Shown here: positions 45,332 through 45,949 of the stretch, piece by piece
How positions within the stretch are numbered: position 1 is the first letter of the stretch
Layout of the letters: each line of letters begins with the position of its first letter
NCBI GenBank assembly: GCA_000146465.1
Contig: CP001949.1
DNA length: 64,000 bases
Direction: 5' to 3' (one strand)
The notes under the pieces: generated by a model
Database searches by the model: none
The model's input: only the letters and a program-made list of their open reading frames with translations
What the model was told of the DNA's origin: nothing
Made by a program: the position numbers and the translations under genes

Positions 45332-45407
45332 GATGAAGAAAATAGCTTCCAGCCCTTCCCAACGAACTGGGAAACTAGACAAAAGAGGAAAAAATTTATC
45401 CCTCAAA

Positions 45408-45949
45408 ATGGTAAGTGGACCTTGAAGTAATTTCAGTCTATTAAAGAAGTTAGAGTCATACCGGATGAAGCAGGATTGTACATGCCGGACGATATTCCAC
45501 AATTTGTTGAGAAGTACAAAGCAAAAACAGCCCGCAAGCCAAGGGCTAGGAGAAGCGACTTGAGCAAGGGAATGGTTGTCGTTGTTCTGGAAGGGGTTTT
45601 TGCATCTCGAAGAGTAGTCTATTTGAAGGCGCTGGAAGACAATCTCGCTCTCTGTGCTGGACCAAAGTCAGTTAGCGGAGTACCATTTTTCAAGATTGAC
45701 GAGAGATATCTTCTGGCAACATCGACTATTTTGAGTATTGGTGTGGATGTGAATGTCGACGAAAAGAACATTATCTTATCAGAGAGAGACGTTTATGATG
45801 TGCCTATGGATGTTGAGATGACAGATGCAGAGAAGAAGATTGATGAAGAGATTGCAAAAGCCGTCAAGGAGATCAAATACATGAGGACCTATCTTTCTGA
45901 GCCATTTGAGATCGACACTACAAGAAATTTCTACTCCCTGAAGTATTAA
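45408..45949 (+). CDS. RPL6: 60S ribosomal protein L6 (eL6), possibly with a 26-nt 5' intron (45411..45436); minimal unspliced CDS 45482..45949
   Basis: KGMVVVVLEGVFASRRVVYLKALEDNLALCAGPKSVSGVPFFKIDERYLLATST matches the eL6 KOW/core. The track ORF begins at TTG 45476. The first plain ATG is 45482. An upstream ATG at 45408 is followed directly by GTAAGT...TAATTTCAG, and removing 45411..45436 keeps the reading frame. Confidence 0.7.

Follow-up and report, generated by a model that had tools for sequence, protein, structure and literature searches.

Short introns biased towards the 5′ end of the gene are said to have been found in ribosomal protein genes of Encephalitozoon and Nosema in the work of Katinka in 2001 and Lee in 2010. 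The short class of microsporidian introns (ca. 22–30 nt; Grisdale 2013; PMC6349667, PMC3629993) is characterized by GT-AG ends, a strict GTAAGT 5′ splice site, a branch motif close to the 3′ AG and a typical size near 25 nt. These introns have been described as lying at the extreme 5′ end, after the initiator ATG of ribosomal protein genes (PMC6349667). In E. cuniculi, splicing of all annotated introns was confirmed by RNA-seq, and for 30 of the 37 introns fewer than 50% of the transcripts (for many, fewer than 20%) were spliced, short introns being processed inefficiently (PMC3629993). The closest described system is the intron in the L6 gene of E. cuniculi. The model of this gene was corrected to carry an intron by Cornman in 2009 (PMC2685015, legend of Figure 1), and the correction was repeated by Peyretaillade in 2009 (PMC2803860), where the E. 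cuniculi L6 entry is starred for a mispredicted start and flagged “(intron)”; an intron in the L6 genes of E. cuniculi and N. ceranae is already on record in these two papers. The latter work also showed by RACE that the 5′ UTRs of E. cuniculi transcripts are shorter than 7 nt and that in ribosomal protein genes the AUG comes right after two signals, first an AAATTT-like and then a CCC-like one.

The window analyzed here is a stretch of 64,000 nucleotides (contig CP001949.1 of assembly GCA_000146465.1), and the gene for ribosomal protein eL6 is located on its plus strand. We conclude, with a probability that we put at roughly 0.93, that the eL6 gene of E. intestinalis consists of two exons, the first of which contributes only the ATG to the coding sequence, and that the 26-nt intron between them is spliced out. 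A mechanical listing of open reading frames (ORFs) starts the gene at a TTG at position 45476, the first in-frame ATG being at 45482, as the first-pass annotation had stated. The same annotation proposed a start codon further upstream followed by an intron, and both were found in the sequence at the proposed positions: an ATG at 45408–45410, directly followed by the 26 nt GTAAGTGGACCTTGAAGTAATTTCAG at 45411–45436. This GT-AG, phase 0 putative spliceosomal intron contains the 5′ splice site GTAAGT (45411–45416), the branch-point-like element TAATTT (45428–45433, with the presumed branch adenosine at 45430) and a terminal CAG (45434–45436). The branch-like element had also been pointed out before; its presence is borne out by the sequence, though not its placement 3 nt before the terminal CAG, since the two directly abut.

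Deletion of positions 45411–45436 joins the ATG in frame to TCT, and exon 2 (45437–45949), which opens with TCT ATT AAA GAA GTT and is in frame with the ORF from TTG 45476 to 45949, supplies codons 2–171 and the stop codon TAA (45947–45949). The resulting frame of 516 nt, stop codon included, encodes a 171-aa eL6 starting with MSIKEVRVIPDEAGLYMPDD (longer N-terminus, MSIKEVRVIPDEAGLYMPDDIPQFVEKYK). Without splicing, the frame of ATG 45408 reads MVSGP and ends at a TGA at 45423–45425, and the eL6 frame itself is shut upstream by a TAA at 45428–45430, inside the intron. Full-length eL6 would therefore require splicing, because unspliced RNA yields just MVSGP from the first AUG. At the junction, an intron-retaining transcript would be recognized by the strings CCCTCAAAATGGTAAGTGG and CCCTCAAAATGGTAAGTGGACC and a spliced one by the predicted strings CCCTCAAAATGTCTATTAAAG and CCCTCAAAATGTCTATTAAAGAAG; at the protein level, the peptide VIPDEAGLYMPDDIPQFVEK, a predicted product of the spliced frame, spans Met16, while MPDDIPQFVEK is the sequence from Met16 onwards.

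Comparison with the short Encephalitozoon-type U2 introns revealed no difference. The ends are GT (45411–45412) and AG (45435–45436), and the GTAAGT that had been described as a perfect 5′ splice site is indeed so: together with the preceding G, G|GTAAGT (45410–45416) is complementary at seven of seven positions to ACUUACC, the 5′ motif of U1 snRNA in Encephalitozoon, including E. intestinalis (PMC5499648). TAATTT is located near the 3′ AG as a branch motif, as judged against nine orthologous introns and not against the logo of the class. The length of 26 nt falls within the reported range of 22–76 nt, typically ca. 25 nt (PMC3629993), and the intron begins at the base after the initiator ATG. 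Removal of the intron restores the 171-aa protein and its retention truncates it, which is also the case in all orthologues. Judged by all these sequence-level features, the eL6 intron is a typical member of the short class, for which poor splicing has been reported. The long microsporidian introns (ca. 76 nt; genes of poly(A)-binding protein and S23; Whelan 2018) share with it the spliceosome and the GT-AG ends; unlike the eL6 intron, they are three times as long, show an extended conserved branch-point region and reach about 80% splicing (PMC6349667).

The E. cuniculi L6 gene (CAD26482.2, NP_597306.2, UniProt Q8SR91) is orthologous to the gene in the window and has the same synteny, with a Tau95-like gene upstream and a kinase gene downstream. 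Its intron also lies directly after the ATG, is 26 nt long, carries the GTAAGTG…GTAATTTCAG signals and is preceded by the identical 19-mer AAAAAATTTATCCCTCAAA. Nine interior intron positions differ between the two species, the first codon of exon 2 is TCT in the window and TTG in E. cuniculi, and the proteins are 77% identical.

The spliced translation matches the deposited model of E. intestinalis ATCC 50506 (ADM12106.2; P0001) with 100% identity over 171 aa, so the in-frame join to TCT ATT AAA predicted in the first-pass annotation leads to a known protein. An identical protein is present in three further E. intestinalis isolates (KAL7345183.1, KAL7347143.1 and KAL7349096.1; four contigs in total), and a 1,100-base stretch of E. 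intestinalis assembly GCA_051312795.1 (locus L001, 2501–3600) is found exactly within the window. The NCBI model of this identical locus starts at the position corresponding to 45408. The NCBI gene range of eL6 spans 542 nt, i.e., 516 + 26 nt, and does not translate colinearly (the product has 171 residues). Since the range holds 26 extra nucleotides, the public annotation already includes the 26-nt intron; locus, protein and intron do not differ between the deposited model and ours. The eL6 intron is therefore already known, from public annotation in this species and since 2009 in its sister species, and what we present is a re-derivation of existing annotation. Plain ORF finders miss an intron of 26 nt; the first-pass annotation recovered it from the sequence alone, and its assignment to the Encephalitozoon-type short introns placed right after the ATG is backed by the deposited model, by the orthologues and by the features of the class. 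The eL6 accessions of E. intestinalis (ADM12106.2) and E. cuniculi GB-M1 (CAD26482.2, NP_597306.2) stand at version 2, and a 155-aa model of E. cuniculi eL6, AGE95161.1, is still circulating. Both observations are consistent with a correction of start and intron that was applied later than the first deposition, and to some strains only.

The identity of the gene is supported over the whole length of the product, which is homologous to eL6 throughout. The Pfam domain PF01159 (Ribosomal_L6e) was present in all 17 of the 17 eL6 homologues returned. The 171-aa protein aligned over residues 1–171 with chain L6 of the E. cuniculi ribosome (PDB 7QEP; E = 5.7e-89), which is listed as a 171-aa sequence starting with MLIKEVRVIPDD, and it matched eL6 of yeast (4U3M; E = 2.2e-18) and of a plant (8AZW; E = 1.6e-15). 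With eL6 of Paranosema locustae (6ZU5) and Vairimorpha necatrix (6RM3), the alignment begins at query residue 3. Judged from the listed sequences of these structure chains, the N-terminal segment is conserved in microsporidian eL6. A Tau95-domain gene precedes eL6 and a protein kinase gene converges on it from downstream, an order kept in all relatives examined.

Directly 5′ of the start codon, at positions 45389–45407 of the plus strand, the 19-mer AAAAAATTTATCCCTCAAA combines AAATTT-like and CCC-like motifs, the promoter/leader signal of microsporidian ribosomal protein genes expected in the 20 or so nucleotides before the AUG. The very same 19-mer is given for the E. cuniculi 60S L6 gene in an additional file of PMC2803860; it is identical among Encephalitozoon genomes and near-identical in Ordospora and in two other relatives. 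Together with the 5′ UTR length of less than 7 nt, the presence of this signal means that the transcript would be expected to start just upstream of 45408, which would make ATG 45408 the first AUG. The uL16 (L10) gene of the window (27039–27698, plus strand) carries the same signal, AATTTTAACCCTCGAAATG, right in front of its ATG (27023–27041) and has no intron.

For the transcription start, the pairings of the snRNAs and the splicing event, we infer the following from published work on E. cuniculi. The AAATTT-like and CCC-like signals would drive transcription from a start point a few bases before 45408. The 5′ end of U1 snRNA would pair with G|GUAAGU, the branch point would be located in the invariant UAAUUU at a distance of 6 nt from the 3′ splice site, and the CAG would be followed by cleavage. 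Analogy with the URAY branch consensus points to A45430, within GUAAU, as the most likely branch adenosine. The reduced major (U2-type) spliceosome of microsporidia would then excise positions 45411–45436, fusing AUG to UCU AUU AAA. The spliced mRNA would be translated into 171-aa eL6, and a transcript that retains the intron would offer a 5-codon ORF and no full-length eL6.

We also searched public sequence collections for traces of the processed transcript. The pattern AAAATG-N0-6-ATHAARGRNGTTAGAGT, representing the spliced junction, retrieved 96 matches in JGI metagenome contigs, none of which encoded eL6 by tblastn; all are chance matches. Among Logan-derived records, where exact spliced proteins would indicate cDNA contigs, there were none, the sources of such proteins being NCBI, UniRef and PDB only.

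Since short introns of E. cuniculi are spliced inefficiently (PMC3629993), much of the eL6 RNA may stay unspliced. The 27-nt intron of a different ribosomal protein gene of E. cuniculi was seen unspliced in one 5′ RACE experiment (PMC2803860). One could imagine that inefficient splicing keeps the intron in place as a dosage or isoform switch, in which MVSGP would act as an upstream ORF and leaky scanning or reinitiation at AUG 45482 would give rise to a 155-aa eL6 or to none. We regard such a switch as unlikely; if it were real, the level of splicing would set the output of eL6.

It is very unlikely that splicing is absent and that the GTAAGT…CAG stretch is part of a leader, with eL6 translated from ATG 45482 as a protein of 155 aa. 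Some older models have this form: truncated eL6 proteins are annotated in E. cuniculi (AGE95161.1, 155 aa), O. colligata (154 aa) and N. granulosis (152 aa), and the reported inefficiency of short-intron splicing in E. cuniculi (PMC3629993) could also be taken in its favor. However, with ATG 45408 as the first AUG, placed there by the promoter motif and the short 5′ UTRs (PMC2803860), the ribosome would reach AUG 45408 before AUG 45482. Further evidence against an unspliced leader comes from the relatives, namely the conservation of the intron signals, the conservation of the codons upstream of ATG 45482, the replacement of Met16 in three of them and the structure of genes that have no intron. 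The comparison of the eL6 N-terminus with orthologues had been suggested in the first-pass annotation, and its outcome supports the spliced model.

Orthologous eL6 loci were fetched and their 5′ ends read; eight orthologues were aligned, and the gene of Nosema granulosis was read separately. An ATG|GTAAGT…TAATTT..YAG intron with the same position and signals is present in at least nine related genomes. Its sequence is GTAAGTGGGACCTTGAAGTAATTTTAG in E. hellem (27 nt), GTAAGTGAGACCTTGAGGTAATTTTAG in E. romaleae (27 nt), GTAAGTGGGCTTGGAAGTAATTTCAG in two strains of E. cuniculi (26 nt), GTAAGTGAGTTTGCGTAATTTCAG in both Ordospora pajunii and O. colligata (24 nt), GTAGGTGGGTCGAGCGTAATTTCAG in Logan SRR21633403 (25 nt), GTAAGTGGACTTGCGAAGATAATTTTTAG in Logan ERR13636775 (29 nt) and GTAAGTAAAAATATAATTTAG in Nosema granulosis (21 nt). 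As can be seen, lengths of 21, 24, 25, 26, 27 and 29 nt occur, and the interior sequence varies as well. In the eight aligned introns, positions G1, U2, A3, G5, U6 and G7, the TAATTT core (A47, T49–T51) and the terminal AG are invariant; position 4 is not, one orthologue having GTAGGT instead of GTAAGT. The N. granulosis intron shows the same signals as the eight aligned ones. TAATTT is found in nine of nine orthologous introns, 0–2 nt before the YAG. The lengths differ by non-multiples of three, and in every intron-bearing orthologue the unspliced reading halts after 5–11 codons. Signals that stay fixed across genera, an interior that drifts and lengths that differ by non-multiples of three are the signature of a spliced intron rather than of a coding region or a leader.

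In the two Ordospora species and in N. granulosis the intron lies directly after an ATG that is preceded by a CCC motif. In the public entries of these three species it is absent: the 24-nt intron of O. pajunii (L007, 1474–1500) is missing from a partial model of 169 aa that starts at a Leu, the 24-nt intron of O. colligata (L009, 1429–1455) from a model truncated to an internal Met (154 aa), and the 21-nt intron of N. granulosis (L014, 1423–1446) from another model truncated in the same way (152 aa). Once spliced, the N. granulosis eL6 starts with MIRDIQVKIQATAKYQADEMPKYIEKY…, in agreement with the N-terminal sequence of eL6 from Vairimorpha necatrix (6RM3).

The beginning of exon 2 behaves as protein-coding sequence. 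Over the 14 codons from the 3′ splice site to ATG 45482, first, second and third codon positions account for 7, 4 and 14 variable columns, respectively, in ten orthologues. The first codons of exon 2 thus show a coding-type substitution pattern, with changes mostly at third positions, and the 15 codons upstream of ATG 45482 are kept as protein, as would not be expected of a leader. Three relatives have Ile or Cys in place of the Met encoded at 45482 (Met16), which is therefore not a conserved start.

Three relatives (Logan SRR21023581, SRR29713748 and SRR25435973) have no eL6 intron at this position. The positions concerned are L011 1501, L012 1498–1503 and L013 265, respectively, and the ATG is joined straight to codons for I-K-[ED] (I-K-E-V in L012). 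Translation in the intron-less relatives thus begins exactly at the junction predicted for the gene in the window, again contrary to the idea of an unspliced leader. The gene of SRR29713748 (L012) reads CCCTCAAAATG ATG ATC AAG GAG GTT AGA, which is the exact spliced form of an ERR13636775-type gene, a kind of natural cDNA that would confirm the junction. At least one relative (L012) thus seems to have lost the intron cleanly, and the form of the gene suggests a clean and possibly cDNA-mediated loss.

There is yet another potential start. Upstream of the eL6 start codon, its frame stays open over 45297–45407 of the plus strand, a stretch that takes in the final 35 nt of the Tau95-like gene (which stops at 45331), and eL6 could in principle start at the in-frame ATG 45297, in which case it would still be spliced and have 208 aa. 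The frame of ATG 45408 is indeed open back to 45297, and the stretch upstream of the ATG is similarly open in E. cuniculi. However, in-frame stops 6–7 codons 5′ of the conserved ATG close it in E. hellem, E. romaleae, O. pajunii and O. colligata; an upstream ATG is lacking in most relatives, and the extension does not resemble eL6. It would contain the promoter motif, and the public model starts at 45408. We give hardly any credence to a start at ATG 45297, which was rejected as not conserved, and the open stretch is probably an accident of the conserved spacer.

That the splice-like motifs came together by chance or through misassembly, with no biological feature behind them, as two other ATGGTAAGT strings in the window with no intron context (26953, plus strand; 45983, minus strand) might suggest, is refuted for practical purposes by the conservation of the intron in at least nine genomes. 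Also against it are the identity of the eL6 region in an independent E. intestinalis assembly, the presence of the same protein on four contigs and the rarity of the full splice motif. The pattern GTAAGT-N8-30-TAATTT-N0-6-AG has one match on both strands of the 64-kb window, with 0.07 expected from dinucleotide shuffles, a figure that leaves out of account the ATG immediately 5′, the in-frame join and the upstream ribosomal protein promoter motif. The shorter string ATGGTAAGT occurs three times, with 0.58 expected. Its occurrence at 26953–26961 (plus strand) spans the stop codon of a 209-aa ORF (ending in …ENGK), and that at 45975–45983 (minus strand) lies antisense to the 3′ end of eL6, in the 77-nt spacer that separates this gene from the convergent kinase gene; both were judged to be due to chance, because neither has a downstream ORF that needs splicing.

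The intron had been proposed to be the only one in the window, and motif scans agree with this: strict, relaxed and ORF-aware relaxed scans detected no further credible intron, such scans not fully covering atypical introns, which could escape them. Three other matches of the relaxed scan, 50–82 nt long, were rejected for lying inside ORFs. Nine other candidates of the ORF-aware scan were discarded for degenerate signals or lengths of 32–86 nt; the one looked at more closely, at 24087–24145, falls within a continuous 351-aa ORF. The only Rfam/ARAGORN match in the window is a tRNA-Thr gene (anticodon TGT) at 52278–52352 of the minus strand, of ordinary length and with no intron noted. Overlapping ORFs at 47041–47767 (minus strand) code for highly repetitive sequence that is charged and of low complexity, with KDGKKDGKDEKDG… and RMERKMARTRRME… in different frames, which suggests a repeat-containing gene.

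The practical value of the two-exon model of eL6 lies in annotation, since the eL6 entries of O. pajunii, O. colligata and N. granulosis can be corrected. The three intron-less eL6 orthologues, in turn, provide data points on intron loss in microsporidia.
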